Source: an uncultured bacterium
GTDB lineage: Bacteria > Omnitrophota > Omnitrophia > Omnitrophales > Aquincolibacteriaceae
Direction of reading: 5' to 3'
Assembly (NCBI GenBank): GCA_964410905.1
Contig: CAYPIR010000003.1
Span: forward strand, 15,986-79,985
Length of the DNA: 64,000 nucleotides
In this document: positions 30,431 through 48,155 of the stretch, piece by piece
Layout of the letters: each line of letters opens with the position of its first letter
How positions within the stretch are numbered: position 1 is the stretch's first letter
Notes under the pieces: generated by a model
Seen by the model: the letters and a program-made list of their open reading frames with translations, nothing else
Told to the model about the DNA's origin: nothing
The model's database searches: none
Program-made: the position numbers and the translations under genes

Positions 30431-32032
30431 TTGCAAACATCAAATACACAGAATCTCCTCCTTTTTTTAGACCGCTACGCTTTTAGGATTTTTTCCGCGA
30501 TTTTTATTGCTGTAAGTCTAGCAATCCTTCCCGACTTCGGCATCAACGTCGACAGCGTCAAAAATTTCGACGAGGGCAGAATAAACCTTTCCGCCATCCT
30601 GCATTTTAGTATTACAAATACCGACCAAATGTTTTTGTCTCATCAAATTCACGGCTCATTATTTTTTATGTTATGCGAAGTTTCCCGCATTGTTTTTTCG
30701 GAATGGATTCCGTTTTTAAATCCAATTTCCGCGCGCCACTTGCCCTTGCCGTTTCTATTTTGTTTTTTTGCCAACAATTTTTATGCTTTCTTAAAAAAAC
30801 GCGTTTCTCACTCCGTAGCGTTTCTGGCGGGGACGATTCTTCTCACTATTCCTCCGGTTTTCGGGCATATTTTCCAAAATATAAAAGACATTCCTCTCAT
30901 TGTTTTTTTCTCATTTACTCTTATTTATTTCTTAAAATGGACTGAAACAAACTTCGCAAAAAACCGCTACCTTTTAATCGCTTCACTTTGCTTGGGACTA
31001 ACATTCTGCATTAAACTTTACGCCGCTTTAATTTTCCCGCTGCTTCTCCTTTATCTTATTTTTCTACACAACAGCAAACAAGAAACCTCTATTGTTTTCA
31101 AAAATATTAAATCAAAAAAGAATATATTTTTATTGTCTCTTTGCGCGATTTTTGTCATCGCTTTTACTGCCATTTTTTATATGCCGGCAATTTGGACGGT
31201 TGAGCAAAAACTCGCGCTCCTAAGCATAAATAAATTTCAGGCCGCGCAGCTATTGGGATATGGCACAAAAGGTTTTCAAATCACTCCCTTTCTAAGACTT
31301 TTTTTAATATTACCGTCATTATCTTTACTGTTTGGCATTTGGGGACTTATCAAAACGGCCGCTCAGCCTAAAAAAAATCTTTGGTCAACATTATCCCTTG
31401 TTTGGTTTTTTGTGGTTCTCTTGACGGCCTGCATGCCTATTTTCCCCGTATACAACGGCATCAGACTTTATATGGTTTTCATTGTCCCATTTTGTTTTTT
31501 TATCGCCGCGGGGATTATCGATGCCGCGCGTAGGCTTGAAAAGTTTTTTCCCAAAAGAAAATTTTTTCTAACGCCCATTTTGGGAACAATGGTTATCGGC
31601 TGTAATATTTGGGGAATTGTTGAAACCCACCCATATGAATTCACTTTCTTTAATGCTTTATCCGGCGGACTAAAAGGCGTGCAAGAAAAACGATTGGAAG
31701 GCGCGAGTGATTATTGGTTAGCCTCATTCAGAGAAGGCGTGATGTGGATAAACAAAAATGCCGCGAATAACTCCACTCTTTATTTAAGTAATCTGGATGG
31801 CGAGATAACGGCATCTGTCTACCCAAGAAGAAAAGACATTAGCATACGGCACGCGACAGAAAGACCTTTTAATAAGAATTCGTATCTTTTTCTTCCAGAC
31901 GGCTTATCAGTATGGATCAACGCGAAAGGCGTAGCCAAAGAGCGTGTATTTTCAGAGCTTTTAAATATGAAAAAAGTTCACAGAATAGAGCGGCAAGGCG
32001 GAAAGATTCTTGAAATTTATAGAAAGGACTAA
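30431..32032 (+). CDS. polytopic membrane protein, putative GT-C glycosyltransferase (ArnT/PMT-like)
   Basis: Multi-TM with a DE-containing first loop. TTG start after GGAGGAG. Confidence 0.45.
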   Translation: MQTSNTQNLLLFLDRYAFRIFSAIFIAVSLAILPDFGINVDSVKNFDEGRINLSAILHFSITNTDQMFLSHQIHGSLFFMLCEVSRIVFSEWIPFLNPISARHLPLPFLFCFFANNFYAFLKKRVSHSVAFLAGTILLTIPPVFGHIFQNIKDIPLIVFFSFTLIYFLKWTETNFAKNRYLLIASLCLGLTFCIKLYAALIFPLLLLYLIFLHNSKQETSIVFKNIKSKKNIFLLSLCAIFVIAFTAIFYMPAIWTVEQKLALLSINKFQAAQLLGYGTKGFQITPFLRLFLILPSLSLLFGIWGLIKTAAQPKKNLWSTLSLVWFFVVLLTACMPIFPVYNGIRLYMVFIVPFCFFIAAGIIDAARRLEKFFPKRKFFLTPILGTMVIGCNIWGIVETHPYEFTFFNALSGGLKGVQEKRLEGASDYWLASFREGVMWINKNAANNSTLYLSNLDGEITASVYPRRKDISIRHATERPFNKNSYLFLPDGLSVWINAKGVAKERVFSELLNMKKVHRIERQGGKILEIYRKD

Positions 32033-32039
32033 AGGCAAT

Positions 32040-33914
32040 TTATTTTGATGGAGAAAAACGTTTCGTTCTATCAAAAAACAAAACCCGCGCTTCGCGAATT
32101 GTTTTTACACTAATTGGTTTATTTATTTTTAAAGATATTTCAAATTGCCCATTTCGCGGCCATTGTTTCACGCGAACTCCATCGCCAGATTCAGTATGAA
32201 ATAAAATCTCCATAGGCGCATCAAAAAATCCTACGCCTCGAACAAACAAATCCCTCCCCTCAGCGCAAATGACTGCACGCTCGGCTCCTCCTCCCGAAGG
32301 TTCCAGAAAAATGCATTTGTCATTCTCATTTATTTTAGAAAATTTTTTGATTCTCGCGCGCTCCACAACAAGCGGTCCGACATCCCGCGAGACATCCCGC
32401 GTATTTTTTGTTTTTTCATTATGCGTAAAAACGACTTGCCCGTCTTCAATCGCGTAAGCCAGCCGTTCTAAAAAAATAGGCGCTTGCGAGGTTTCCGCGT
32501 CCTCCGGTTTGGTCTCTTCAAAAAGGCTGACGGACATTCCAGAATAAAATCTCACAGCATTTGTATAAACATGGAAAAGATATGTTGCTTCATCTTCGCT
32601 ATGGAAAAAATATTCTTTGGGATGCGCTGGATAATAATCCCCTGCCCAAACTAACCTTTTTCCGCCCTCATTTATACTTTTGGCATAATCCGCCGCGTCT
32701 TGAACAAATGTAGAATGATAGAAAGGGTCTTGAAACTTCAGCATTTCTCTGCCCGCGCGAACAAAAGAAATGCCGAGAATACAAACTACAATAAAAACCG
32801 TTATGGGATAAATCGGCTTCAAAATTTTACGTTTAAAAAAATCGGCCTCAAAAGTCTTTATTTTAATAATTCCAACTATCACAAAAAAATAAATAGCGGG
32901 ATATATCGGGAAAAAGAAGCGCGCCTCTTTGTGCTGCATAAAATGTCCGTGGAATAAAAACCATAAAAAAATCCAAACAATAAAAAACCTGCTATGAAAA
33001 CTTTGTTTTCTAAAACTTGCCGCGACCCCAATCATAGCTAAAACGCTCGCGAGTCCGCCAAATGACTTCCAAATAAACGCGTATCCTTCCCACCAAGTTT
33101 CTTGGTAACTATTTAAAATCCGCATATGCGAAAACGTTTCGGCAAAAAACAATATCGGCGCGAATGTCCAAGATGTTCTTCCGGAAATGCCATAAGCGAG
33201 AGTCGGAAAAATCACGGCAATAAGTGTGGCCAAGACGGCATAAAGAGAAATTACAAAAATATTTTTAACAGGAAATGCTCTTATATTTTTCCCCGTTATA
33301 AAAAACTCCCATATTTCCGTTAAGAAAAAAATACCGGGCATCAGCGCCATAAAATTATGTCTGGTTGCTATGCCGACTCCCGCCCACAAAATCGATATCC
33401 AAAAAAACAGTCCGCGGGTTGTCTTTTTCCATTTAAGATAATAGACAAAAGCCATCACAAGCAAAAAAACTCCTACAATGTCCTCTTTCGGAAACGGCGC
33501 GGAGTGTATAAGAAGCGGATTGAGCGCGAAAAGGGTTATGCCGAAAACCGCCCAAAATCTACTGAGTTGAAACCTGAATAATCTATAAACACCGCAAACG
33601 GCTCCTATAAAAAACGCGACCTCGGCAATGCGGGACAAAAGAAGCTGCAGGTATTGAATGCGCGTAATATTTTCTATGAAAAGAAATAACGCGTATAGGA
33701 GAGATAAAAATGGAGTGCTTCTGTAATAGTAAGGGAATTCATAACCGAAGAGGATTTGTCTGGCGTTTAAAAAAAGACCAAACGCATCAAAATTATCAAC
33801 GCGAAGAATTGCCGCGACCCAGACTAAATAAGAAAATAGAAAAAGCAAAACACCGATAAAGCCATAACAAATTATGTTCTGAAATCGTGAAGTGAATGAA
33901 ATCTTTAAATTCAT
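32040..33914 (-). CDS. polytopic membrane protein, putative GT-C glycosyltransferase (ArnT/PMT-like) with a C-terminal soluble domain
   Basis: ~12 TM, DNFD in the first loop, ~200-aa C-terminal periplasmic-type domain. ATG abuts the stop of the upstream GT2 gene. Confidence 0.5.
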   Translation of the reverse strand: MNLKISFTSRFQNIICYGFIGVLLFLFSYLVWVAAILRVDNFDAFGLFLNARQILFGYEFPYYYRSTPFLSLLYALFLFIENITRIQYLQLLLSRIAEVAFFIGAVCGVYRLFRFQLSRFWAVFGITLFALNPLLIHSAPFPKEDIVGVFLLVMAFVYYLKWKKTTRGLFFWISILWAGVGIATRHNFMALMPGIFFLTEIWEFFITGKNIRAFPVKNIFVISLYAVLATLIAVIFPTLAYGISGRTSWTFAPILFFAETFSHMRILNSYQETWWEGYAFIWKSFGGLASVLAMIGVAASFRKQSFHSRFFIVWIFLWFLFHGHFMQHKEARFFFPIYPAIYFFVIVGIIKIKTFEADFFKRKILKPIYPITVFIVVCILGISFVRAGREMLKFQDPFYHSTFVQDAADYAKSINEGGKRLVWAGDYYPAHPKEYFFHSEDEATYLFHVYTNAVRFYSGMSVSLFEETKPEDAETSQAPIFLERLAYAIEDGQVVFTHNEKTKNTRDVSRDVGPLVVERARIKKFSKINENDKCIFLEPSGGGAERAVICAEGRDLFVRGVGFFDAPMEILFHTESGDGVRVKQWPRNGQFEISLKINKPISVKTIREARVLFFDRTKRFSPSK

Positions 33915-34841
33915 TTATGACAAGTTCTGGTTTTCGTCGTCCGACTTTCGTAAAATCATCTCGGACAAAAGTCCAAAAAATATGCTTTGAAGTCCGCCCA
34001 AAAAAAGCGTGAATCCCAAAAACATATAAGGATAGTGCGGCGCGATTTCTCCGCCAAAACACTTAATTAAAAAAAGATGCCCATTTATTATGCCGCCGAT
34101 AATAAGAAACAGAAAACCGATGGCACTAAAAAATCTGGCCGGTTTTAGTCCATAACGCATTAAAAAAGAAACGGTTAGAAGGTCAACAAACATTCCCCAC
34201 GCCCGCGCCGCGCCGAATTTGGACTTACCGAATTTTCTAGCGCGATGTTCAACGGGAGACTCGGCAACAGAAAAACCTTTACGAAAAACAACCGCCGGAA
34301 TAAATCTATGCATCTCGCCATAGAGAGTAATGCTTTTGGCAACTTCCGCGCCGCACAGCTTTATGCCGCAATTAAAATCATGGAACTTAAGACCCGTCGC
34401 GAATCTTGTAAAAAAATTGAACAGCGCCGAAGATAAAATTTTATGCCAAGGATCGTTTCTCAACTTTCTCCAACCGTTAACGAAATCCACATTTTGCGAT
34501 TGTTTAGCGTCAAATAAATTTAAAAGTTCCATGGGGACGTCTTGCAAATCAGCGTCTAAAGTCGCGATATAATTACCGCGCGCCAGAGCAAATCCTCGAT
34601 TTAACGCCTCAGATTTCCCGCGCCGTGAACCAAACACTTCTACTTTAATTCGCGCATCATTTTTAGAAATATTTTTTAAAATAGAAACGCTTTTGTCCGA
34701 ACTGCCATCATCTATGAAAATAATTTCAAAGGAATAATTTCCAGACTCCATGGCTTGCTTGATTTCGTCCGTCAAAAGCTGAAGAGAGTCTTGTTCATTC
34801 AAGACAGGGACGATTATGGAGAATTCAATTTTAGATGTCAT
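33915..34841 (-). CDS. polyprenyl-phosphate sugar synthase, GT2 (GtrB/ArnC/DPM1-like)
   Basis: SIIVPVLNE, FIDDGSSD and DADLQD motifs, plus two C-terminal TM helices typical of GtrB/ArnC. Confidence 0.8.
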   Translation of the reverse strand: MTSKIEFSIIVPVLNEQDSLQLLTDEIKQAMESGNYSFEIIFIDDGSSDKSVSILKNISKNDARIKVEVFGSRRGKSEALNRGFALARGNYIATLDADLQDVPMELLNLFDAKQSQNVDFVNGWRKLRNDPWHKILSSALFNFFTRFATGLKFHDFNCGIKLCGAEVAKSITLYGEMHRFIPAVVFRKGFSVAESPVEHRARKFGKSKFGAARAWGMFVDLLTVSFLMRYGLKPARFFSAIGFLFLIIGGIINGHLFLIKCFGGEIAPHYPYMFLGFTLFLGGLQSIFFGLLSEMILRKSDDENQNLS

Positions 34842-34900: not shown

Positions 34901-37900
34901 CTATGCTGATTTTGATATAGCGCCAAGAGCGAGTGCCGATATTTGAAGATTAGTGAATAAAAGTTCTGACGCGGATTGAACCGTTTTAGGCAATTCTTTC
35001 GAAGTAATAAGTTTGTCAATAGCAGCAAGAAAAGCATATGAGCGCATATCGATAGACAAGTCATCCGCTACTATCAATGTTTCATTTCGCAAAAGAGTAG
35101 AAGCTAACTTTTCTAAATTAGGACGCGCGTCTCGCCGCGCGTCATAGACAAGCGTTCTGATAATTTCTCCTTTAATAAAACCGCTAAGCGCGTTCACATC
35201 ATCCGTAACAGAAACCTTTACTCCTTTCCCTTTATTTTGCTGCGATTTTCTGACCGCCATAACTTGTCTGACAAAATTCCGTTCAAGCTCCCGCGCTTCA
35301 ACTTTAGAAATATTAGGTATCAATATTTGTATTTCTATCCCAGGTTTATCGGCAAGTAGCTGCTCCATTATTCGCATCAAAGAGTCATTCAGCGACGGCT
35401 TTTCATCCATCGCGATTGAAATTTTTAGGACATCCGTTTCGCTCTTATTTAGTATTTCGCGTGTTATATCTTCCGCCACCGCATCGCGTTCTTTATCAAC
35501 CCAAGCACCCGTCACAACCTCAGAATAAAACTTTTGCCATCCATTAGACGACATCGCATCAACTTCGCTTTGTCTAAAAACTCCTTTAGCAAACACGACC
35601 GTTACTTCTTTGCCAACTTGAGTTCCTCCGCGGCTTTCTGAGCGCGATAACTCAACAAAGTCTTGTAATGCGGAAGCCATCATCATATTCCCCAAAAAAC
35701 TCATCATAGGAATTACTGTTTCATTAAATTCCGATACGGCTTCTTCCGCGCGATTTCGCATAATTTCCGATTTAGAAAAAATATCGTTTATTTGATCAAA
35801 CAAATCTTCTCTTTCAGGTTCAGTAGCGTGAAACTTATTTAGCAGCTGCACCGCCGTTTTGTTGCTGTCCCAATTCTTTCCCATATGTATTGAAGGAACG
35901 CTCTGGCTTGTGGGCTCAAGCAAGTTATGATTTTCTCCCACTATTACCAACCTTGCCACGCCCAAAATCGGCAAAAGTTCTCCTGCTGTTTCAAGTCCAA
36001 TAATATCCGCGTTTCCCATCGGCTCGCCCTCGGCAAGCCCATTAAATCTTTTGGATTTTGCTCTATCTCCAATTCTGCGAAACTTTATTTTGCTGTCAGA
36101 AAGTCCATATTTTCCTGCTGTTTTCAGCAAAAATTCTTCTACCATTTTACCGCCATGCCTAACTCCCATAATTAAAAGAGGCTTTTGTTCTTTGGGAAAT
36201 TTTGCATACGCTTGAAAAATTTTTTCTATTTCTACATTGTTGGGGCTTGAGGCGACAATAATTATTCTGTCCGCGGAAACTCCCATTATTTTTCGAATTT
36301 CCTCATGTTTCTCATCTGAAATTTTTTGAGGCAAAACATATTTATATGGATCATGAGGGAGAATCAAACGCTCGTCATGAGACTTTCCAAAAAAAGGCGC
36401 ATTGCTAAAACTAATAGCTATTTCATTTTTCTTTCTCGCTGCGCTTTTAGATCTTATGTCATATCCAAGAAAACTTTCTTTAATTAGCCTTTCATTGACC
36501 TCTCCGCCATAAGTCAGAATAACTTGTTTTTCGCTAAGTCCTGTGGCCTTGATAAATCCACGCGTGGAGTTTATCGCCGCGACTTCGGGTATATCAAAAG
36601 TAATTTTAATGTTCTCTTCGTCAAGTCGTTTTATGATTTGAAATCCATGTCGCTTGATATTTTTAAAATCTACATCTTTTCGCATCGCCAGCCCCAGCAC
36701 TTTAGCGACTTCGATTGGATACGCGGCAAACCAATCTCTAATTTGCTTCATATCAAAACCCGCGTAATGAAGCGAATCTACTGCGTCAGCAAAACTAGGC
36801 TCTTTTAAAGAGGCTTCAAAGGAGTTGCTAAACTCTCTCGGCGGATTATTTCTCAAAGCTTCTATAAGAGCTGTTCTCCCCAGCGAATTTCGCGCACCAA
36901 GCCTGGCAATAGTGTTTACCGCCTCGGAAGACCGCAAAAATTTTTCAAAAATATTTTTCATAGAATCTTTTATATAATCCGCAACAAATTGCCCTTCTTC
37001 CAAAGAATCCAACCAAAGTTGTTCTATTTCTGTTTGCAAATCGTTGCCGTTATTTATTCTTTCTTCACTACGGCTTACATCGCCTCGCTCGCCATTAAAA
37101 TATTTATTCCATATGTCAGAGCGAACAAAAAGCAAGGCGCTATACTTGCCCCCAAAGGGCTTGGCGATATCAAAGCCATCTATTTTCGCAGCCACGGCAC
37201 TTTCATCACCTAACTTGTCATAAAATTCATCCAAAACAAACGCAAAATCAGAAATGCCTGTTGTTAAAATCATCGCAGGCTTAAGCCGCATAATTTCTTC
37301 TAAAAATGACAGACCATAGTCATACGCAATATTCATAACAACAATAGGATTTTTCCATTCCTCTGGATTGACTTCCCCAGAATCAATCCCCTCGCCAAGA
37401 TATTTCACTATTTGAAACTGAGAGGCTTCCAAACCATTATTTTTAAGATTAGCGACAAGAGATTTTCGTTTCCTCGCGCCCGGCTCTACATATAAAACTT
37501 TTTTAGGATTATTAAACGCAAGCCCCAATTTCCCGTCATCTGCTCCAAAATCAACTACAGAAAAATTATTTGTAAGCGATGCTATTTTTTGAATTAACGA
37601 TAAAGCAATATGCGTTGACGCAATTGGCGTTTCAATGACATCTCCTTCGCGATCTGTTTCCTCTATGCCTTCATCCTTTTCTCTTCCAAGGACTTCTTTA
37701 ACGGCATAATCGGAAACTCCAAATCCGGGAGACTCCAGCGAGATAAATTTCATGTGCGGGTATTTTCCATGCAGATTCTCAGCAATCGCTCTTGTCTCTC
37801 GTTGTTCTCTATAATAGACAATATCACCATGCCGTCTAAATAACACTACGCGACGACCTTCTAAATCTCCTTCGATAAATTCCAGCGGAATGATTTTCAT

Positions 37901-40900
37901 ATTGTCCTGAGCGGGCGGGTAAAAATCAGCAGCAACATTTTCAAATTTTTCTCGAGCAAGGTTTAAAAAATCATTCATAGGGTTTTCAGTATCTTCGCGA
38001 AGAACTTCCTCAAATAATTTTTGTCTTGTAGATTGAACCAAACCTTTAGAACCAAAAATATTACGCTCAGAATAATTAGAATTTTCAACCGACTTCCTCG
38101 CTTGTCTAATTTCATGTTTTGCTTCGTCTATATTCTCAAATGGTGAAATGTCCAGCATTTCGCTTCGGCCATCATCGCGTTGTATATTTTTAAAATATTT
38201 TTCTAAAGCGTCGCGGAATTCATCTTTATACCGAGCCGGCGCGTAAATCGGCGTCGAATATGAGCCATTGATTAGTTTTACAGGAATGTTTTGTTCACGC
38301 AAAAATTCAAATATTCCTTTTATCTGTTTCTCTATGTTTCCTTTTGAAGGAAGATTAACCACATCCGTTGTCCATTGCCCGTCCCTAGCAAAAAAATCCA
38401 TATCAATCGAGACAATAACTCCTTGCTTTAGCCCCTCAGAATGCTTTGCTATGACAGATTTCCAATCACTTGTCATTGCCGCAAAATCTTTTTCATCGCC
38501 TAAAAGACTTCTGCCTTCGCTTGGGTAAAACCAAAATGCTTCACCGACATCGCCTTCCTTCAACAAAGATGTCACCCAATTAGACAAATCAATGCCGTTA
38601 ATTAATTTAGGAGAATTATCGCTGTGATAATCAAAAAGAAGCATGGGCAGCCCTTTAGAAATTATTCCGTTTTGAACGCCATAATGAATTTGGTTGTAGG
38701 CTCCATCGTGGTTACTCGTAATTTCAAAGATGTTGTTGTTCAATTCACTGGCTCGTGTTTCACTTCTAACAGTGCTAGTCAACATAGAATCGTCTGTTTC
38801 CCGCAACGCTAACAATATCGTTGCTTTTGCCGCGATTTTCATTAATGGAAATTCTACATTTTTAAAGTCATCGACCGCCTGTCGTATGTTCTCTTGTATT
38901 TGTTCTGAATGGTTAAGCGTGGAGTTTATTTGATTAAAAAAATCTCTTTCATTTACGACTTGGACAGCGTTAAACGCACCTAAAATATTTATTGCGCTTC
39001 GGTTATTTGTCCAATTTCCGTCAAAGAAAAGCGTGGGAACCTCTTGGCTCATAGGCTCAAACAAATTACGATTTTCTCCCACTATTGCCAAATCCGCCAC
39101 CGCAAAAAAAGATCTCAACTCACCTTGCGTGTTCAAAATAACTATGTCCGCGTCGCCCATCGGGACCTCTTCGGCAGTTCCATTAAAAGACCCACCTGGT
39201 AACATATCTTTTTCAGATCTGACGCGGATCTTATTTCTTCCGAGCTCAATTTTGCCCATATCCCCTTTAAGAATATCATTAACCAAAGTAGCCTTAGTAT
39301 TGCGCATGCCGACAATTAAAAGTGGTCGTTCGTTTTCGGGATACTCGCTATACGCTTTAATGGTTTTTTTGAGCTCTTCATTTTTCGGGCTTGACAGTAT
39401 TATTATTTTTCTGTTCGGTAAAACTTCCATTTTCTCACGAAGAATTTTGCGCTCCTCAGCCGAAATTTTTTGAGGCAAGGCATATTTATAAGGGTCATAA
39501 GGAATAAACATCGAGGGGAGAATACTAATAACTCTTTCTCCGTCATGAAACGCCGCGACAATTTCGTTCGCGGGATTAAGTTTCCCTCTAATAAATTCTC
39601 TAACTCTAAAATCGGGGAAATTATCTTTTAACATTTTTATGGAAACCTCTCTGTCAGCCAACAAAACAGCTTTTCTCGCATCTATGTTTGCCGCGTTCAA
39701 AAAGCCACGAATGGCGTTCATTGATGCGGCTTCATACACTTGAAATAAAATTGTTTTACTAGTTTTATTCAAACGCTTTGCCAAACTTCTCTCATCGCGC
39801 AATATCTCTATTACCTTTTTCTTGTCTCCTTTGAAAAACAAAAGAAATTCAGTAATTTGGCTTATTGTCTGACGTAACGCGCCGTTTAAATTTGTCTCAC
39901 TGCTGCGGTTTAAAATCTCCTCGCCAACCAAAATTTTTAAGATTTCCCAAGCCTTAGAAAAAAGATCAAAGCCAATGTCTCCATCTATAAAAAGCAAAAA
40001 CTCCGCCACATCAAATGGATTTTGTTTAAAAATTTTTTGAATATCAAAGCCCAAAACTTCTATGACTTTTCCCATTGTTTTAGAAAAAGAAAGAGAATAT
40101 AAAAAATTTTTCACTTCTAATGGAGCTTTAATGAAAGCGGCTTGAATTGTATCAGCGTCCAAAACTTCCGTATTATCAAGGTAAGTAAAGCGCGGCTTCT
40201 TACGTGACGTTTCATGAGAGAATGAAAACAACGCTTTTAAAAATACATCGCGAGATGTCTTAATTGATTCCCTAACAGTCTCCAAACCTAAGACCTTGTG
40301 TTTCGTAAGCTCGCGTAAAGCGTCAAAAACTAATAAACCATAGGAAAAATTATCAACGGAAATGCTTTCCACCATTTTAAAAAATAAAGCCGTATCCGCA
40401 CCTAATATTTCGCATAAAAAATCCGCCCCCAAAATATCCGCTAATTCTTTTAAGGTTTCTACATCTGCCGTCTTTATTTCCGGAAAATCCTTTGCCATAT
40501 ACATGGAAGTTGCTGCTATCAAATCTTCTACGGTTTTCCGCGTTTCACTTCGTGGGCGTTGAGCTTTTTCTAAGTATTTTTGCGCGACATCTTTTCGGAC
40601 AAACAAAACAGCTCGATAATTTCCTTGATTTGGTATTTCAAAAAAGTGTCCGCCTGAAGCAATAATTTGCGGCTGATATGAAGTCGCGAGCATTTCCTTT
40701 TGGGCGTCTTTGGCAAAAAGACTTCCAAAAATATCTTCGTATCCAAGATGAGAAAAATATTCGTGTCCCGTTGTAAGAACCATCGCGGGCTGAAGTTTTT
40801 TTATTGTTTCCAAATATCCGCCGCCGTAATCATAGGCAACATTCATTACGACAAATGCATCTTTCCAATCTTTCGGATTAATATCGTCTTCCAAAGACGC

Positions 40901-43396
40901 CCAAAGCGATTCAATAACTTTATATTTTGAGTTGTCCCAACTGTTGCTCTTTAAATTACATTCGATAATTTTTCTTTTACTTTCATCTTTTTCGACAAAC
41001 AAAACTTTGGGTGCGTCTTTAAAAACAAGCCCCAGTTTGCCGTCATCCGAACCAAAATCAACCATAGGCAAGTCTTTAACTTGAGGCATGACTTCTTGAA
41101 TAATAGAAAGTGCGGCATGCGTTGTCGCGGGAGGCGTCAAAACGCCTCGTTCAGTGCTTTCAAAAAATTCTGGATATTCCAATGAAACGAATATGAATTG
41201 TGAAAACCTATTTTTAATTTCACGGACCATGTCGGCAGCGTCATTACTATCGCGGTAATAAATAACATTTCCGTGCCTGCGAAAAATAAGCCCAAGCCGT
41301 CCGTCTATAGTCGCTTCAATAAATTCCAGCGGGAATATTTCCCCTTCAATGTTTGCCGTTGGGTAGAAATCTATGGCAGCATCTTGGAATTTTTGCCGCG
41401 CCCGCGCGAGCAAATCCGCCATCGGGCTGTTCTTGTCTATTTTTATAATATCTTCAACAAAAGCCCGTCTCTTTGCTGGCGGCAAATCTGAAAAAATTTT
41501 GTTTGCAAGTCCCTCGCCCAAAGTCCTTCCGAGCATAATATGTCGAATTAGGTCTTCCGGCGAAGCGTCCGTAACCCATTCATTAGCATTGTCTGCGGTC
41601 CCCTTAACGCCTGACATTGCCTCTCTTACTTCAGAGCGGATAAATTCAGCTGTGTCCGCATCAAAACCTTCTGTGCCGCTTAAAACAGGAGAAAATCTGA
41701 CAAAAGAATCGGAGAGATTGTCATTCCGCGCGTTGTTTTTCAACATTGAAGAATCCAAAAGATTACTCTCTTGGGTTCCGATCTCCTTATCGGGACTAGT
41801 CAATGCTCGCTGCGTTGACACAAATAGTCGCTGCTCAATCGCCGCGTCCAATTTAAATTCGTCGTCGTGTAATGGCAAGTCGGTTTTACCGTTTCTATTC
41901 GTTGCTCCAAGCGTCATCGTTTTTATGTAATTATCATTATTAGTTTTGCTCGTTATGCGCGGCAAAATTCGAACATATGATAAATTTTTATTTTTAAAAA
42001 TATTTTCTAATCCCGCTGTATGAAAACCTCCTGTTATTAAAATTGCGCTCTGAATATTTAAATCCTTTATCTTCGCGAACATTTGTTCAAACATCACATC
42101 GTCACGTTTTATAGCAACTTCATAAAACTTTAACGCAAGCCTAACCGCGTAAGGCAAATCATTTTCAGCCAAAACACCCCGAGCTTCTTGATATTCCTCA
42201 TGCGTAAGCTCCAGTTCCAACAAGCTTTTAAGAAGTAGATATTTTTTGTACTGTGCTACTATTCTTTGCTCGTCATGAGTTTTTGAAAGCGCCGTCAAAA
42301 TTATCTCGTTTATTCTTTTTGTTTCTCTCAAAAGCTCTTCAGCTCGAATTTCTTGGCCCAAAAGCCTTGCCCCTAAAAGTTTTACAAGCGCCGGATAATC
42401 CTGAAATTCAAACCCTAAATCCTGTGTTTCATTTAAAAACTTCTCAAGAAACGAGCGAATATCTTTTTCTTCTTCAAGAAAATTCTTAAAAGCCGCTTGA
42501 TAATCTTCACTGAAATTATTTTCAGCCAGCCATGTGATAAGTTTGGTTTGCTCTTTTTTTATTGTCTCCCGTGTTCCCTCGGTTTGTTTCTCTAATTCTT
42601 GCAGTTTGAAAAATCTCACAAGCTGCGGAAAATCATGTTGTTCGCGAGCGTTTGATAAATCTATATTTAAAATATCAAGAGCTGTTTTTTTCAGAAAACC
42701 AAGCCGTGAAATAAAATCTTTTTGTATCTCAGATTGAAAAATCCATTCACGGAAAAAATTTTTAAAATTAGGGTTGGTGTTTTTTGCAACTTCTTGTTTA
42801 AGACTTTGTTTTAATTTAAGCAAAATTTTTGAAGCTTCTTTTTTGTGAGAGTAAACCTCTCTAAAAAGCTTTAATTCTTCAAGATAAAGTTCTCTATTCT
42901 CTACGCCAAAAACCTCCGCGCCGGACTTATCAGAAAACAGAAATCTCTCAACGCCTCCGACAATTCCCTTTTCGGTTAATTTATCTATGAGTTTTAAATT
43001 TGCATCTTCTTCGTTGAAAAATCGGAGCAATTCTTTTTTCTGTTTCCCAACTCCGCCTTCTACAAAAATAGTTTTTATTCCATATTCTTTTTCAAGATGT
43101 CGCAAAATTTGCTCTTGATTTTTCTGCGCCTCGACACTTCCGTGCGCGTCTTCTATGTGAACAATAGAAATTGGATAAGAAAATTTCGCTTCATTTTCCG
43201 GTTGAGAAATATACATGTCTTTGATACTTCCAACGCAAAGAGGTATTTCAATTTTAGAAATTATTGAGGGAGCGCGATTTTGGCTAAAATCTATGGCGGG
43301 CGCGGCAAACGCAACATTTGTCCAAAAGAAAACGATGGACATAAAAATAGCGATATTTTGCCGCGCTAACAGTTTATATTTTTTACATTTAGACAT
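34901..43396 (-). CDS. 2831-aa N-terminally anchored giant multidomain protein. It has a domain shared with the 964-aa protein, two methyltransferase-like domains, two WaaA/KdtA-like GT-B domains, and an arginase/deacetylase-like middle segment.
   Basis: Single ORF with an ATG at 43396. Internal duplication aa 658-1530 vs 1807-2580. Motifs DTQGEL..ADLAIVGEN and IIILSSPKNEE resemble WaaA. Confidence 0.75.
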   Translation of the reverse strand: MSKCKKYKLLARQNIAIFMSIVFFWTNVAFAAPAIDFSQNRAPSIISKIEIPLCVGSIKDMYISQPENEAKFSYPISIVHIEDAHGSVEAQKNQEQILRHLEKEYGIKTIFVEGGVGKQKKELLRFFNEEDANLKLIDKLTEKGIVGGVERFLFSDKSGAEVFGVENRELYLEELKLFREVYSHKKEASKILLKLKQSLKQEVAKNTNPNFKNFFREWIFQSEIQKDFISRLGFLKKTALDILNIDLSNAREQHDFPQLVRFFKLQELEKQTEGTRETIKKEQTKLITWLAENNFSEDYQAAFKNFLEEEKDIRSFLEKFLNETQDLGFEFQDYPALVKLLGARLLGQEIRAEELLRETKRINEIILTALSKTHDEQRIVAQYKKYLLLKSLLELELTHEEYQEARGVLAENDLPYAVRLALKFYEVAIKRDDVMFEQMFAKIKDLNIQSAILITGGFHTAGLENIFKNKNLSYVRILPRITSKTNNDNYIKTMTLGATNRNGKTDLPLHDDEFKLDAAIEQRLFVSTQRALTSPDKEIGTQESNLLDSSMLKNNARNDNLSDSFVRFSPVLSGTEGFDADTAEFIRSEVREAMSGVKGTADNANEWVTDASPEDLIRHIMLGRTLGEGLANKIFSDLPPAKRRAFVEDIIKIDKNSPMADLLARARQKFQDAAIDFYPTANIEGEIFPLEFIEATIDGRLGLIFRRHGNVIYYRDSNDAADMVREIKNRFSQFIFVSLEYPEFFESTERGVLTPPATTHAALSIIQEVMPQVKDLPMVDFGSDDGKLGLVFKDAPKVLFVEKDESKRKIIECNLKSNSWDNSKYKVIESLWASLEDDINPKDWKDAFVVMNVAYDYGGGYLETIKKLQPAMVLTTGHEYFSHLGYEDIFGSLFAKDAQKEMLATSYQPQIIASGGHFFEIPNQGNYRAVLFVRKDVAQKYLEKAQRPRSETRKTVEDLIAATSMYMAKDFPEIKTADVETLKELADILGADFLCEILGADTALFFKMVESISVDNFSYGLLVFDALRELTKHKVLGLETVRESIKTSRDVFLKALFSFSHETSRKKPRFTYLDNTEVLDADTIQAAFIKAPLEVKNFLYSLSFSKTMGKVIEVLGFDIQKIFKQNPFDVAEFLLFIDGDIGFDLFSKAWEILKILVGEEILNRSSETNLNGALRQTISQITEFLLFFKGDKKKVIEILRDERSLAKRLNKTSKTILFQVYEAASMNAIRGFLNAANIDARKAVLLADREVSIKMLKDNFPDFRVREFIRGKLNPANEIVAAFHDGERVISILPSMFIPYDPYKYALPQKISAEERKILREKMEVLPNRKIIILSSPKNEELKKTIKAYSEYPENERPLLIVGMRNTKATLVNDILKGDMGKIELGRNKIRVRSEKDMLPGGSFNGTAEEVPMGDADIVILNTQGELRSFFAVADLAIVGENRNLFEPMSQEVPTLFFDGNWTNNRSAINILGAFNAVQVVNERDFFNQINSTLNHSEQIQENIRQAVDDFKNVEFPLMKIAAKATILLALRETDDSMLTSTVRSETRASELNNNIFEITSNHDGAYNQIHYGVQNGIISKGLPMLLFDYHSDNSPKLINGIDLSNWVTSLLKEGDVGEAFWFYPSEGRSLLGDEKDFAAMTSDWKSVIAKHSEGLKQGVIVSIDMDFFARDGQWTTDVVNLPSKGNIEKQIKGIFEFLREQNIPVKLINGSYSTPIYAPARYKDEFRDALEKYFKNIQRDDGRSEMLDISPFENIDEAKHEIRQARKSVENSNYSERNIFGSKGLVQSTRQKLFEEVLREDTENPMNDFLNLAREKFENVAADFYPPAQDNMKIIPLEFIEGDLEGRRVVLFRRHGDIVYYREQRETRAIAENLHGKYPHMKFISLESPGFGVSDYAVKEVLGREKDEGIEETDREGDVIETPIASTHIALSLIQKIASLTNNFSVVDFGADDGKLGLAFNNPKKVLYVEPGARKRKSLVANLKNNGLEASQFQIVKYLGEGIDSGEVNPEEWKNPIVVMNIAYDYGLSFLEEIMRLKPAMILTTGISDFAFVLDEFYDKLGDESAVAAKIDGFDIAKPFGGKYSALLFVRSDIWNKYFNGERGDVSRSEERINNGNDLQTEIEQLWLDSLEEGQFVADYIKDSMKNIFEKFLRSSEAVNTIARLGARNSLGRTALIEALRNNPPREFSNSFEASLKEPSFADAVDSLHYAGFDMKQIRDWFAAYPIEVAKVLGLAMRKDVDFKNIKRHGFQIIKRLDEENIKITFDIPEVAAINSTRGFIKATGLSEKQVILTYGGEVNERLIKESFLGYDIRSKSAARKKNEIAISFSNAPFFGKSHDERLILPHDPYKYVLPQKISDEKHEEIRKIMGVSADRIIIVASSPNNVEIEKIFQAYAKFPKEQKPLLIMGVRHGGKMVEEFLLKTAGKYGLSDSKIKFRRIGDRAKSKRFNGLAEGEPMGNADIIGLETAGELLPILGVARLVIVGENHNLLEPTSQSVPSIHMGKNWDSNKTAVQLLNKFHATEPEREDLFDQINDIFSKSEIMRNRAEEAVSEFNETVIPMMSFLGNMMMASALQDFVELSRSESRGGTQVGKEVTVVFAKGVFRQSEVDAMSSNGWQKFYSEVVTGAWVDKERDAVAEDITREILNKSETDVLKISIAMDEKPSLNDSLMRIMEQLLADKPGIEIQILIPNISKVEARELERNFVRQVMAVRKSQQNKGKGVKVSVTDDVNALSGFIKGEIIRTLVYDARRDARPNLEKLASTLLRNETLIVADDLSIDMRSYAFLAAIDKLITSKELPKTVQSASELLFTNLQISALALGAISKSA

Positions 43397-44273: not shown

Positions 44274-44672
44274 TTGTAAAAATCAATAATTTCGTGAACA
44301 GATTTAATTCTAAAGTTATCCTGCGCATTGTTATTTAAACGTCGCAGGATCCAGGTGTTGAGCGCCTCTGGATTCTGCAACGCCACTACGTTTCGTGCAG
44401 AATGACCAGATTGTCTCGCTTTTGTAGGCGGAATGACATAACGGACAAGTGCCGAAGGCGCTTCGCCGTTTCGTGCCAATCCATTGGGGATTGGTGCAGT
44501 CAACCGTAAGGTTGCTGAAAAGACGCTACGGCGAAGCCGAGCGCTTGCCCTGTATTTGCGTATCGGACGCAAATGCGGTACTTCCTGTATCGATGCATTG
44601 GGCATCGATGCGGAATGACGTAAAAATAAAAAACCTTCAACAAATCTGTCTACGAAATTATTGGCTTTTACA
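44274..44672. repeat. MITE-like element, copy B, ~400 bp with ~30-bp terminal inverted repeats
   Basis: Left end aattgtaaaaatcaataatttcgtgaacagattt. Right end aaatctgtctacgaaattattggcttttacaat. Confidence 0.6.
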
Positions 44673-44757
44673 ATAAAAAACGACATCAATGACAAACTGC
44701 GCCTCAAAAAGCGAGGAGGTTTGAAATCGATGCCGTTTTTTTGTTTTTCTTGGCTAC

Positions 44758-47433
44758 TTAAAAATCATACCTCACGGTTGCGTAATAGGTGTGGCTTATA
44801 TAACGATCGCGAATTTCCATATCCCAATTACCCGTGAGAGTGAAATTCCCTTTTGATAAAAAGGCAATTTCCGCTCCGAGTAAAAGTCCGCTTTTAGACG
44901 GTTTCGCGCCGCGCACAAGAAAGGAATTTCCGCCGCCAGCAAAACTCGCGCGCGTCTCGTATCGCTTCCCAATATAATCATAAAGCCAAGCGCCTTTGAT
45001 TGACGGAACAAATGTTCCAACTTCTGTTTTGATTTGGTATTGCAGTTTAAGCCCAAGCGTTTGTTCTAATGTGTGATACCCCTTCCCTTTAACCGATAAA
45101 TCCAAATCGCCCGCGCCATTTTCGTCATATCCATGAAGCCGCAAATAACTATATTCCAGTCCGACAAATGGCGTAATCTCCAAATGCTTAAGCTCCGCCG
45201 ATGTCATCGTATAACCTAGTTCAAACTTTGAACTATATTCCTGCCCGCTATGTTCCGCTTTTGCCACGCGGTCAAGCGCGCTTGTTATTGCTATTTCTCG
45301 GCGGCTCTTATATTCGTCCCATGTAAAAGCTATCATGCTGTCGGCATACCAAAAATTCTCGCCGTAGTTTCTGACCGCCGCTCTCTGGTTGGCTCCATAA
45401 GCCCTGCCGGCGCACAAATCAAGCGAGTCATAGCTGCCATACAAACTAAAACTGTAACTATTAATTTGTTCCGTGGGATTTCCCGGCCGTTTTGAGTCAA
45501 CATCCGCGTAACCATATCCCGCCGCCGCGCCGACTCTAAAGTGGCTGTCCAGCTGCCTATCTATACCGACCGTTGTCCCATAGGAGTTTGACGTAAAACC
45601 CTCAATGCCTTTTCGCGTCTTCTGCTCCATATGATTCCCTAAGCCTTGCAGCCAGACACCAAGCCCGGTTATCGTCTCGCCTGATGAAATTCCGCTTTGG
45701 AAAAATCCGTGCCGCACGCTGCCCAAGCGATTACTAACTGAACGCATATGATTCCCCGTCAGCATTTTGCTTCCGCGCGCGATTCCTGAACTTATATCCG
45801 GCATCATTGTCGAAAGCGCTTTTTGCACCTCTTCAGAACTCATCCCATCTAAAGCATTAAGCACATCCAGCATATCGCCTTGGGCGTTTGGCATATTGTC
45901 TAAAACTTCGCCAACCATTCTTGAGTTTTCATCCTTTCCAGCATCGCTCGCGAATCCGCCCGCGCGGCTGAGCATAAGACTCAATATCCCATCATGAATG
46001 CTTTCAGTCCCTGTATACCGGTCTGAGAAAAGCGTCAGCAAACCATCAAAATCTAATGTGCCGCCCGCGCTCAAAATATCTACTGTCGTTCCGTTAGCAT
46101 AATATCCCGATGCAAGCGAGACATCGATGTCCCCGCTAACATCTATATCACCGTCCGCAACAACAGAACCATAATCATTTTCCGCTATCGTGAGCGCAAG
46201 CGTAGAACCGGCAGCTTGGTCAAAATCCCCGCCGATAAGTAACTGCGTTGTCCCGAGTTCAAGAGTGCCAGCATCCAATAAAACATTGCCTGTCCCAAGC
46301 GCCTGGGAATTTCCAACAATTACTGTTCCGGCGCTAACTGTCGTCCCGCCTTCATATGTATTCGCTCCAGAAATAGTAAGCGTGCCATCTCCTTCTTTTG
46401 TTAAACTACCGTCCCCGCTTATAACCCCAGAAAAAATTGTATCCTCGTCATTTCCTCCGACTGTCAAATCAGCTGTTCCTAAATCTACATCGCCAGCTCC
46501 GCTTAACCCTTGCACAGTTTGATCATAATCATTCAAGTCGAACGAAGCGCCAGATTGAACTGCTAAACCAGAACTAGTGGAAATTATATCCGCAGCTCCT
46601 GCTTGTAATGTTCCAGCACTAACTGTCGTTCCGCCTGTATATGAATTAGCTCCAGAAAGAGTGAGTGTTCCTGTCCCAGTCTTTGTCAAACTTCCTGAAC
46701 CGCTTAACCCCCCACTCATTGCAGCCACACTTTCATTGCCTATAGTCCCGCCATTAGCTTCCAACGTCCATGCACCAGCGTAACTATCTCCTGTTAAAAT
46801 CAACCTTCCGCCGTTAAGAGTTCTGCTAGTCGAATATAAAGTATCAGCAAATATTGATAATTCGCCCCCAGTATTGATAGAGATAACGTTTGAAAATAAA
46901 CTTCCACCCTCAGCAATAGTTACCGTCCCTTCATTATTCACAGTTAGGTTGCCTATAAGATTTCCGCCAGAGTTGACAATAACAGCACCTTCCGGCGATA
47001 TAACAATTCCTCCATATGAGGCAACATCTCCACCGTCTGGATTGGAACCGCCACTAATTGTAAATATTCCGTGATCAAAGTTAAATACACCCAGTGTAAT
47101 CCAGTTTCCACCTGCTAAAGTGAGATCCGCAAGAGTCGAATTAACATTGGCGCCATTGACATGCGCCGAACCAATAGAAATATCGGCATCTTGGTCGATG
47201 GTAATATCATCGTCATGTGTAGGCACCGTTGAGGTGTCCCAGTTAGAAGAGTCAGTCCACGTGGAACCATCTCCGCCACCAGTCCAAGTTACAGTGGCAG
47301 CAAATGAAACTGGCGAGAAAATAGAAAGGAGAAAAATGAGAGAAGTAAGAAGAGTTAAACTGCGGAAGAAAAACGAACGCGGATAACTATTTGTTTGTTT
47401 GTTTGTTTGTTTGTTTGTTTGTTTGTTTAGCAT
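44758..47433 (-). CDS. autotransporter (type Va) outer-membrane protein
   Basis: Signal peptide. G/T-rich passenger with TGTGTLTLSGANSYTGGTTVSAGTL repeats. C-terminal beta-barrel ending ...YATVRYDF. Confidence 0.85.
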   Translation of the reverse strand: MLNKQTNKQTNKQTNSYPRSFFFRSLTLLTSLIFLLSIFSPVSFAATVTWTGGGDGSTWTDSSNWDTSTVPTHDDDITIDQDADISIGSAHVNGANVNSTLADLTLAGGNWITLGVFNFDHGIFTISGGSNPDGGDVASYGGIVISPEGAVIVNSGGNLIGNLTVNNEGTVTIAEGGSLFSNVISINTGGELSIFADTLYSTSRTLNGGRLILTGDSYAGAWTLEANGGTIGNESVAAMSGGLSGSGSLTKTGTGTLTLSGANSYTGGTTVSAGTLQAGAADIISTSSGLAVQSGASFDLNDYDQTVQGLSGAGDVDLGTADLTVGGNDEDTIFSGVISGDGSLTKEGDGTLTISGANTYEGGTTVSAGTVIVGNSQALGTGNVLLDAGTLELGTTQLLIGGDFDQAAGSTLALTIAENDYGSVVADGDIDVSGDIDVSLASGYYANGTTVDILSAGGTLDFDGLLTLFSDRYTGTESIHDGILSLMLSRAGGFASDAGKDENSRMVGEVLDNMPNAQGDMLDVLNALDGMSSEEVQKALSTMMPDISSGIARGSKMLTGNHMRSVSNRLGSVRHGFFQSGISSGETITGLGVWLQGLGNHMEQKTRKGIEGFTSNSYGTTVGIDRQLDSHFRVGAAAGYGYADVDSKRPGNPTEQINSYSFSLYGSYDSLDLCAGRAYGANQRAAVRNYGENFWYADSMIAFTWDEYKSRREIAITSALDRVAKAEHSGQEYSSKFELGYTMTSAELKHLEITPFVGLEYSYLRLHGYDENGAGDLDLSVKGKGYHTLEQTLGLKLQYQIKTEVGTFVPSIKGAWLYDYIGKRYETRASFAGGGNSFLVRGAKPSKSGLLLGAEIAFLSKGNFTLTGNWDMEIRDRYISHTYYATVRYDF
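47390..47428 (-). repeat. tetranucleotide repeat, (TTTG)9 on the plus strand and (AAAC)9 in the coding sense, within codons 3-14 of the autotransporter
   Basis: tttgtttgtttg... encodes NKQTNKQTNKQTN immediately after ATG-CTA. Confidence 0.9.
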
Positions 47434-47558
47434 ACATTGTCAAACCTCACAAGGTTGGGGATCAAAATAAAAGAATACAAAACGGTTTCACATTTTACTA
47501 TTTCGGCAAAAAATTTAAATGCTTAAATACAAATAAATACAAATAACTTTTGTCATTA

Positions 47559-48146
47559 GTGTAAAAGTCAATAATTTCGCAGACAGATTTGTTGAGGGTT
47601 TTTGTTTTTTTATTATCGCTGGCGAAAGCGAGACAATCTGGTCATTCTGCCCCAACGCCCAATGCATCGATACAGGAAGTCCCGCATTTGCGTCCGATAC
47701 GCAAATACAGGGCAAGCGCTCGGCTTCGCCGTAGCGTCTTTTCAGCAACCTTACGGTTGACTGCACCAATCCCCAATGGATTGGCACGAAACGGCGAAGC
47801 GCCTTCGGCACTTGTCCGTTATGTCATTCCGCGTGAAGCGAAGCGGAGTCGCGGAATCCACAAGGCAAGACGAGGCGTTCCTTGAGCCTCGCTTGGCAGT
47901 GGTTGCACATAGGTGCAACTAGAGGCTCTCAACACTTGGATCCTGCAACGTCCGCTTTAGCGGTCGCGCAGGATGACGTAATGGACGAGAGCGGTGAAGC
48001 CGGCTCGCTATTACGTATCGGCGAATTCAAACTAGACGAGACGACAAAGTCTCGCTTGTTTGTGTCAATGCAACAAGTATTGACTTGTCGCCGATGCTGC
48101 TTAACTAAATCTGTCTACGAAATTATTGACTTTTACAGGGATGATG
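47559..48146. repeat. MITE-like element, copy C, ~590 bp. Its internal modules are inverted relative to copy B.
   Basis: Left end gtaaaagtcaataatttcgcagacagattt. Right end aaatctgtctacgaaattattgacttttaca. Internal sequence is the reverse complement of copy B modules. Confidence 0.6.
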
Positions 48147-48155
48147 AAACCGCTG

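Follow-up and report, generated by a model that had tools for sequence, protein, structure and literature searches.

The question raised by this locus is whether a single giant gene of an uncultured Omnitrophota bacterium carries an old internal duplication and, if it does, what was duplicated and what the two copies may do. The gene lies in a window of 64,000 nucleotides (nt), the window being the whole stretch of DNA that was analysed (contig CAYPIR010000003.1 of assembly GCA_964410905.1). An earlier note on this DNA had proposed that nt 35657-41425, which correspond exactly to amino acids (aa) 658-2580 of a giant open reading frame (ORF), hold an ancient internal tandem duplication of one supermodule. 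Two paralogous copies are indeed present and they are very old. We favour, and consider probable when taken as a whole, the explanation that a unit of two cassettes was duplicated en bloc long ago within a modular multi-enzyme protein that is exported or anchored by its N terminus and belongs to a kind common in Omnitrophota. The gene is laid out as follows, RSExR being a short motif that recurs at its module boundaries and GT-B a fold of glycosyltransferases (GT).

34901..43396, minus strand: giant ORF of 2,831 aa, a single uninterrupted frame encoding a modular multi-enzyme protein
41624..43396, minus strand: N segment, aa 1-591, with a predicted signal or anchor, the family-defining N-terminal domain and a linker, closing with RSEVR at aa 587-591
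40538..41623, minus strand: cassette A1 (copy 1), aa 592-953, with RSETR at its end; conserved core at aa 659-953 (nt 40538-41422)
38753..40537, minus strand: cassette MB1 (copy 1), aa 954-1548, with RSETR at its end; helical region at aa 954-1194 and GT-B core B1 at aa 1195-1540 (nt 38777-39814)
38153..38752, minus strand: UPF0489-like cassette between the copies, aa 1549-1748 (200 aa), with RSEML at its end
37058..38152, minus strand: cassette A2 (copy 2), aa 1749-2113, with RSEER at its end; conserved core at aa 1807-2113 (nt 37058-37978)
35630..37057, minus strand: cassette MB2 (copy 2), aa 2114-2589, with RSESR at its end; shorter helical region at aa 2114-2243 and GT-B core B2 at aa 2244-2583 (nt 35648-36667)
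34904..35629, minus strand: C-terminal domain, aa 2590-2831 (242 aa)

The module order is N domain, A1, MB1, UPF0489, A2, MB2 and C domain. The translation of the ORF is 100% identical to the deposited protein P0001, which forms a singleton cluster. When the whole protein and its seven separate segments were compared with Pfam, no module passed the threshold. The UPF0489 match of the window itself is weak (E 0.028), and this cassette is 43% identical to the UPF0489 cassette of a related protein, P0002, which passes the Pfam cut-off.

Comparison of the protein with itself by BLASTP (aa 658-1530 against aa 1807-2580, with composition-based statistics) gave two collinear matches with E-values around 1e-61. 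In block A, 120 of 319 positions are identical (38%, E = 6e-62), and block B, collinear with it, has 124 identities over 331 positions (37%, E = 8e-62). The first block pairs aa 659-953 with aa 1807-2113 and the second pairs aa 1195-1540 with aa 2244-2583. All the peptides quoted in the earlier note were located in both copies: DLLARARQKFQDAAIDFYP / DFLNLAREKFENVAADFYP, PLEFIE, FRRHG..YYR and VMN(V/I)AYDYG, as well as L(Q/K)PAM(V/I)LTTG, (Y/H)DPYKY(A/V)LPQKIS and GEN.NL.EP. Furthermore, the C-terminal motif that had been read as that of a GT-B enzyme is a genuine GT-B nucleotide-sugar-binding motif.

The shape of the duplication differs in part from the first description, which had the two segments collinear over about 800 aa at an offset of about 1150. 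Collinear they are, but the strong similarity amounts to about 640 residues split over two blocks rather than to a continuous 800, and the offset between the copies goes from 1,148 aa at block A to 1,049 aa at block B. This drift arises because the helical stretches lying between the blocks differ in length (241 aa in the first copy, 130 aa in the second). These stretches resemble each other only marginally (local score 49, z = 3.5, equalled in 6 of 500 shuffles). The global alignment of A1+MB1 with A2+MB2 nevertheless extends from RSExR to RSExR in both copies, the leader ahead of A and the helical M region being weakly similar and placed in the same order. Nor is the arrangement strictly tandem, since the 200-aa UPF0489-like cassette intervenes between the copies. 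As for the single supermodule, it gives way to a pair of cassettes that fold independently, one with a methyltransferase fold and the other helical plus GT-B, separated by the RSExR motif that parts all modules of this protein family.

The great age of the event is visible at the nucleotide level. The DNA of the two copies is 53-54% identical, falling to 36-42% at third codon positions. By the Nei-Gojobori method, the proportion of synonymous differences between the copies (pS) is 0.67-0.78, i.e., saturated, while the nonsynonymous divergence (dN) is 0.50-0.60. Synonymous saturation together with such a low DNA identity excludes a recent duplication or one created by assembly, as the earlier note had maintained. 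In multiple alignments, A1 and A2 are 42-44% identical and B1 and B2 38%. All the family-invariant columns are retained in both copies and dN is well under the saturated synonymous divergence (dS), which indicates that both copies have been kept by selection, again in line with the note. Within MB, the divergence is uneven: the donor-side half is 43% identical from copy to copy, the acceptor-side half 36% and the helical region 33%, the latter being about 100 aa shorter in MB2 than in MB1. Read from the alignments, this pattern fits, without proving it, one donor class with diverged acceptor or partner recognition, and it is the only hint that bears on the note's suggestion of two linkages or two substrates per catalytic cycle.

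The limits of the duplicated unit are set by the boundary motif. The giant protein has seven RSE tripeptides, six of them at module boundaries; the rest of the window encodes 15,664 aa, in which RSE is absent.

41624-41638, minus strand: RSEVR at aa 587, module boundary
40538-40552, minus strand: RSETR at aa 949, module boundary
38753-38767, minus strand: RSETR at aa 1544, module boundary
38153-38167, minus strand: RSEML at aa 1744, module boundary, the sole departure from RSExR
37058-37072, minus strand: RSEER at aa 2109, module boundary
35630-35644, minus strand: RSESR at aa 2585, module boundary

This motif is not restricted to the gene under study. In 221 related proteins, RSExR was seen 311 times against about 11 expected from their composition (about 28-fold), with 6-33 occurrences in permuted controls. 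Related Omnitrophota proteins with the N domain contain up to 14 motifs each, and the density per 1,000 aa is 0.74 in proteins that have this domain versus 0.08 in those that do not. In P0002 and P0011, the RSExR motifs closely flank Pfam domains and never lie inside one; in P0002, for example, they flank the UPF0489 cassette at aa 2195 and 2394. The six sites of the giant gene use differing arginine codons, and serine codons of both codon families, so the constraint acts on the peptide; this variation also rules out a DNA-level repeat or recombination signal, which had been considered. No prior description of RSELR, RSEMR, RSEVR or RSExR was found in the searchable literature. RSExR can be regarded, from its distribution, as a candidate linker or cleavage site.

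What the duplicated cassettes are can be approached from their relatives and predicted structures. The B core, of about 330 aa, has about 100 relatives (clusters at 50% identity) among 1.84 billion representative proteins searched with HMMER; some stand alone, with a length of 320-345 aa, and others form part of proteins as long as 5,094 aa. One of these relatives, P0133, has WD40 and leucine-rich repeats upstream of B. No Pfam match was obtained for any of 27 aligned members, so this is a family without a Pfam model. Models of NCBIfam for WaaA, the transferase of 3-deoxy-D-manno-octulosonate (Kdo) also called KdtA, give weak matches in 25 of the 27 (best E 1e-13), at aa 1319-1512 in the case of MB1. 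These matches score 16-40 bits against cut-offs of 363-590 and cover only profile positions ~212-409.

Searching the PDB sequences with MB2 as a single sequence gave nothing significant. The 27-member profile did match Aquifex WaaA (2xci, E 8.4e-9), over the C-terminal domain only, as well as 4bfc, the isolated domain of Acinetobacter WaaA that binds Kdo linked to cytidine monophosphate (CMP) (E 1.9e-5). The AlphaFold2 (AF2) model of MB2 has a mean predicted local distance difference test (pLDDT) score of 81.6, mostly above 90 for residues 140-450. It comprises a low-confidence helical region (pLDDT 42-71), two Rossmann-like domains and a long C-terminal helix. Foldseek retrieved GT-B enzymes with this model, namely WaaG (E 8.5e-7), a homologue of O-GlcNAc transferase (OGT), WaaA 2xci (E 4.6e-6) and BshA; the match to the WaaA C-terminal domain 4bfc has a template modelling (TM) score of 0.74 and a root-mean-square deviation of 3.3.

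When the profile is aligned with 2xci, the R, G, L, N and E residues that the family conserves coincide with WaaA R212, G248, L250, N273 and E276 (the numbering of the 2xci chain is the literature numbering +21). In the WaaA structure 2xcu, R212, N273 and E276 bind the phosphate and ribose of CMP, while G248 and L250 belong to the cytosine site (PMC6286764). A comparison of the active sites of the two copies, as the earlier note had recommended, reveals the equivalents of these ligands in both, as GMR, GEL and NRNLFEP in B1 and GVR, GEL and NHNLLEP in B2, and all eight family-invariant columns are retained in both. The cytosine-stacking F247 of WaaA is not conserved, the corresponding segments being NTQGEL in B1 and ETAGEL in B2. 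The N-terminal half of B has no sequence match with WaaA in the profile alignment and PF04413 is not matched. In this half, the conserved Glu that follows beta-1 and the invariant Lys of DPYKY stand at comparable positions and are at most candidate equivalents of the catalytic or acceptor residues of WaaA (G30/E31, E98, K162).

B is thus a glycosyltransferase of the GT-B type whose ancestry is in part that of the GT30 donor-binding domain, but it is not a WaaA. A CMP-activated donor would be an extrapolation from the conserved ligands. The likeness to WaaA/KdtA (2xci/2xcu, 4bfc) consists of the GT-B fold, a homologous C-terminal donor-binding domain and five equivalents of CMP-site residues. 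However, B scores 10-20 times under the equivalog cut-offs and lacks both F247 and a sequence match in the acceptor domain. Moreover, WaaA is a membrane-surface enzyme acting on lipid A, whereas B is predicted to be a soluble module placed behind a helical region inside a giant protein. This last arrangement recalls O-GlcNAc transferase (2vsn, 5c1d), where a helical repeat region directly precedes the GT-B unit; the Foldseek alignments with OGT and with its bacterial homologue span 576-690 columns. The TM scores are low, though (0.3-0.4), the sequence affinity of B is to GT30 and not to GT41, and the helical region is of low confidence.

KpsC, to which the duplication had been compared, is a dual-domain beta-Kdo transferase involved in the synthesis of the capsule linker; it has two paralogous GT domains per chain, presumably by duplication. 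Two paralogous glycosyltransferase domains in one polypeptide are common to both cases. Here, however, every GT has a methyltransferase-fold module as its partner. A distance of about 1,050 aa, with a further enzyme cassette in it, separates the copies, which are bounded by RSExR motifs, i.e., candidate cleavage sites. KpsC (GT107) is neither among the four PDB sequences matched by the B profile (E <= 10) nor among the top 50 Foldseek matches, and the glycosyltransferase is kin to the GT30 enzyme WaaA. The analogy with KpsC is a loose one, limited to the two GT domains per chain.

Cassette A is far rarer than B. It matches neither Pfam nor NCBIfam. An exhaustive HMMER scan of the 1.84 billion representatives found only two relatives, P0121 and P0130, and a word-index search with copy 2 found P0121 as its sole match. 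When the alignment of the two copies served as query, no homologue was retrieved and the giant protein itself was missed as well, which is probably a limit of the search method. A third relative came from a scan of GTDB genomes and lies in another giant Omnitrophota protein.

L004 7844-18649: L004 giant, 3,601 aa, with the N domain, an A module (aa 729-1031), RSEQR, PPDK_N and Bac_transf modules, and the shared C domain

Nothing significant was obtained by searching the PDB sequences with A2 as a single sequence. The AF2 model of A2, built from four sequences, has a mean pLDDT of 70.2 (60-92 in most blocks of residues 177-352); in it, a helix and a small beta domain accompany a Rossmann domain. 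Compared with the PDB by Foldseek, it gave 344 matches at E <= 1e-3, and the best 50 of these 344 are all methyltransferases. RumA, TrmA, RlmI, RlmCD and Trm5 lead, and METTL5, RsmD-like proteins and PrmA are also found; E-values for RumA, TrmA, RlmI, Trm5, METTL5 and PrmA range from 3.5e-8 to 2e-5. Furthermore, the four-sequence A profile places motifs I and II on the RsmD-like chain 3p9n (E 0.0036).

A1 would combine a small beta domain with a class-I methyltransferase fold (its fold is taken from the A2 model), and A2 has the same architecture plus a 21-aa insertion. Motif I reads DFGSDDG in A1, DFGADDG in A2 and P0121, and DFGASDG in the L004 giant, which departs from the glycine-rich GxGxG pattern. 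In both copies the central Gly is replaced by Asp, while the distant relative P0130 retains the canonical GAGDG. The Glu at the end of beta-2 is invariant, in (V/Y)L(F/Y)VE, and aligns with the Glu of VLFVE in 3p9n, a ribose-binding position. An N-x-A-Y motif stands at the position of motif IV, and 48 columns are invariant across the four A sequences, which are 36-40% identical. Cassette A is thus predicted to be a class-I methyltransferase fold whose loop for binding S-adenosylmethionine (SAM) is altered in both copies, and the motif I change predates the duplication. With RumA/RlmD, TrmA, RlmI, Trm5, RsmD, METTL5 and PrmA, A shares its predicted fold, the motif I-II alignment to 3p9n, and the order of the beta-2 acidic residue and the motif-IV-like N-x-A-Y. 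It differs from these enzymes by the Asp at the central motif I Gly, by the lack of any Pfam or NCBIfam match and by having three known relatives.

These data bear on how the two A-MB units arose. A adjoins B in no other protein among the 1.84 billion representatives. As the order A-M-B occurs twice here and nowhere else, a single en-bloc duplication is the simplest origin, and this unique pairing, doubled in the same order and with similar divergence, is the strongest argument for it. A neighbour-joining tree of 66 B sequences places B1 and B2 as sisters, each being the nearest neighbour of the other. Two B copies are also found in P0126, P0129 and P0135, and they are sisters in two of these three proteins, so intragenic duplication of the B module recurs.

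The function that we propose for the duplicated unit is as follows. The members of each A+MB pair would work as a couple on a glycoconjugate (or protein) acceptor, which they would modify with a CMP-activated donor, possibly of the ulosonic-acid type. The two pairs, having diverged mainly on the acceptor or partner side, may serve different acceptors or different steps, in a process that would be tied to co-directional glycosyltransferase genes of the GT2 and GT-C types located downstream. The RSExR boundaries would be linkers or processing sites, and after cleavage the four cassettes may act as separate polypeptides.

Several points weigh against this combined account of origin and function. 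The sisterhood of B1 and B2 has a bootstrap of only 42%. The tree of A modules is unresolved: 162 of 500 bootstraps join A1 to A2, and the A module of the L004 giant is more similar to A2 (48% identity) than A1 is (44%). Because the UPF0489 cassette lies between the copies, a simple tandem event does not suffice without a further loss or insertion. Among about 15 billion proteins, the full-length protein is a singleton, and no orthologue with the duplication was found in the databases searched; the constraint on each copy separately thus has no comparison set. The donor assignment is an extrapolation, because WaaA scores are 20-40 bits against cut-offs of 363-590 and the N half is unmatched. 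The replacement of GxGxG by G-[AS]-D-D-G may abolish SAM binding, so that A is possibly non-catalytic or differently liganded. Lastly, a Sec-type signal would put enzymes dependent on SAM and on nucleotide sugars outside the cytoplasm, where such cofactors are unexpected.

Some of these points would fit another origin, in which cassette shuffling, i.e., recombination among paralogous giant genes with an N domain, from this genome or a different one, joined the two A-MB units. These would then be paralogues without being products of an internal tandem duplication. The low bootstrap of the A1+A2 clade, the UPF0489 cassette that splits the copies and the closeness of A2 to the L004 module (48%), A2 being about as close to P0121 (43%) as to A1 (44%), are all compatible with such an exchange. 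So is the co-occurrence of several N-domain paralogues on single Omnitrophota contigs, P0093, P0112 and P0115 on one of 206 kb, and P0028, P0041 and P0044 on one of 2.17 Mb. Modules are also freely reshuffled, since P0002 shares the N, UPF0489 and C modules with the query protein and the L004 giant shares N, A and C, while the interiors differ. However, no donor is known for the A-MB unit, as the pairing occurs in none of the other representatives, B1 and B2 are mutual nearest neighbours, and the leader, the M region and the boundary motifs are collinear across both copies. Furthermore, the distances of A1 to all other A modules are uniformly longer, which suggests that A1 evolved faster after duplication. 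That the tree does not recover A1 and A2 as sisters implies an event at least as old as the lineage split, a faster copy or cassette exchange. On balance, we consider shuffling unlikely.

Concerning function, one or both copies, or all A modules, could be catalytically dead and kept as scaffold or binding modules that add length or binding sites. The Asp at the central motif I glycine in A1, A2 and P0121 (DFG(A/S)DDG), where P0130 keeps GAGDG, speaks for such a loss, as do the missing F247 equivalent in B1 and B2 and the lack of any Pfam match. Against this, both B copies retain the eight family-invariant residues and the R, N and E ligands of phosphate and ribose, and A retains the beta-2 acidic residue (VLxVE), N-x-A-Y at the motif IV position and its 48 invariant columns, so that we hold inactivity to be improbable. 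Finally, that the similarity is an artefact of low complexity, chance, recent duplication or assembly error is to all intents ruled out by E-values of ~1e-61 and saturated synonymous sites, and also by an ORF that is uninterrupted and identical to the deposited protein; no point was found in its favour.

The reading that we prefer, an en-bloc duplication inside an exported or anchored multi-enzyme protein, draws its second part from the N terminus and from the relatives of the protein. The segment aa 14-33 is the only strongly hydrophobic one, with five basic residues before it and AFA|AP after it, which indicates a Sec-type signal or a signal anchor. At least 120 homologues of 1,580-4,941 aa share only the N-terminal ~500 residues with the query and have different enzymes behind them; those with source names are mostly labelled Omnitrophota. 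The N domain (aa 1-511, nt 41864-43396, minus strand) has the invariant columns DAH, EG, G.E, R and GGFH. Weak matches to PF04187 (ChaN/Tiki superfamily) were seen in 4 of 13 members (best E 0.018) and were not reproduced when four full-length relatives, two of them among the 13, were scanned. Its profile drew only coiled-coil noise from the PDB sequences, with no Pfam or PDB match above threshold. The N domain may serve as an anchor or else act as a hydrolase or protease, the ChaN/Tiki likeness being a lead only.

Among the matches listed, the closest relative is P0002, which also shares the UPF0489 cassette and the C-terminal domain; in place of A and B, which are missing from it, it has HAD, methyltransferase and Bac_transf modules. 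The C-terminal domain is common to P0002 (39% identity), P0004 and the L004 giant. It has no Pfam match, and a search of PDB sequences gave no significant match. The N and C domains together bracket module sets that are otherwise different. In the L004 giant, A lies directly behind the N domain as A1 does here; judging from these sequences, this arrangement seems conserved while the interiors are reshuffled among relatives.

Considering the RSExR motifs, the N-domain family could consist of secreted polyproteins, with RSExR as the processing site and a dedicated protease freeing the cassettes after export, a scenario that we put forward only tentatively. In this scenario, the conserved N-terminal His/Glu/Arg/His domain, faintly Tiki/ChaN-like, could be the protease. 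MARTX toxins and viral polyproteins are processed multi-effector proteins that would work in a comparable way. The likeness lies in unrelated enzyme modules carried by one exported chain with a short recurrent motif between them; RSExR is, however, unrelated to their sites, and cleavage here is hypothetical.

The genes located next to the giant ORF also deserve attention.

33915..34841, minus strand: family-2 glycosyltransferase (GT2) gene (PF00535, E 1e-28), 59 nt downstream of the giant ORF and co-directional with it
32040..33914, minus strand: polytopic membrane protein gene, GT-C-like, with a weak Alg9-like match (PF03901, E 0.0027, below cut-off), abutting the GT2 gene
30431-32032, plus strand: second GT-C gene, PMT_2-type

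No terminator-like site was found in the interval between the giant ORF and the GT2 gene, and the GT-C-like gene is probably in the same operon as the latter. The presence of GT2 and of two GT-C genes beside the giant gene suggests a glycosylation system based on polyprenol-phosphate sugars. Relatives of the cassettes have comparable neighbours. The stand-alone B homologue P0150 (335 aa; L002/L003 8001-9008) lies directly upstream of an exporter pair of the ABC-2 type (ABC, ATP-binding cassette), in a cluster with GT2, GT9 and GT1 genes, a sulfotransferase, a TylF methyltransferase and an acyltransferase, which looks like an ABC-transporter-dependent polysaccharide locus. In the same way, the A relative P0121 adjoins a GT2 gene. 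The recurring neighbourhood is one of glycan assembly.

On the other side of the giant gene, a 250-nt inverted repeat (44428-44676 / 47556-47832; 192 nt at 97% and a further 55 nt at 89%) encloses an autotransporter gene (44758-47433), with a third partial copy at 48107-48149. Spurious ORFs on either side of the autotransporter gene translate this same repeat. No Rfam family was matched in this repeat-flanked region, which may be an invertible or mobile cassette.

The duplication described here is typical of Omnitrophota modular proteins, in which internal domain repeats have already been reported as the rule. "Multi-enzyme metabolic" long proteins were described in this phylum, with domain repeats in 65% of the Pfam-positive ones, and these repeats are old duplications that have diverged until the nucleotide repeats dissolved (Nielsen & Lui 2026, bioRxiv 10.64898/2026.06.07.730766). 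The protein studied here resembles them by its N-terminal signal or anchor, its unrelated enzyme domains tiled along the chain, its internal repeats, old and dissolved at the nucleotide level, and its homologues labelled Omnitrophota. It differs from them by its size, 2.8 thousand aa where the catalogues begin at 10 thousand, and by a repeated unit that is a two-cassette block without Pfam models and is thus missed by Pfam-based repeat counts. Neither a cleavage or boundary motif nor the shared N domain is reported in either of the two preprints on Omnitrophota giant proteins, the other of which states that cleavage points are unknown and names this as an obstacle to the dissection of these proteins (West-Roberts et al. 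2023, bioRxiv 10.1101/2023.11.21.568195).

For this group of proteins, the gene would be a clear example of the en-bloc copying of a two-cassette unit, with modules that are invisible to Pfam. Three by-products come with it: a Pfam-less glycosyltransferase family of about 100 clusters, a distant offshoot of the Kdo-transferase lineage, found both stand-alone in putative polysaccharide-export loci and inside giant proteins; a methyltransferase-fold module that is very rare and whose cofactor motif is altered; and the RSExR punctuation of module boundaries. If the processing scenario is true, this punctuation would be the first concrete cleavage-point rule for Omnitrophota giant proteins. If RSExR does mark cleavage sites, the giant proteins of these uncultivated bacteria could be dissected computationally, in a way that would be testable by proteomics.

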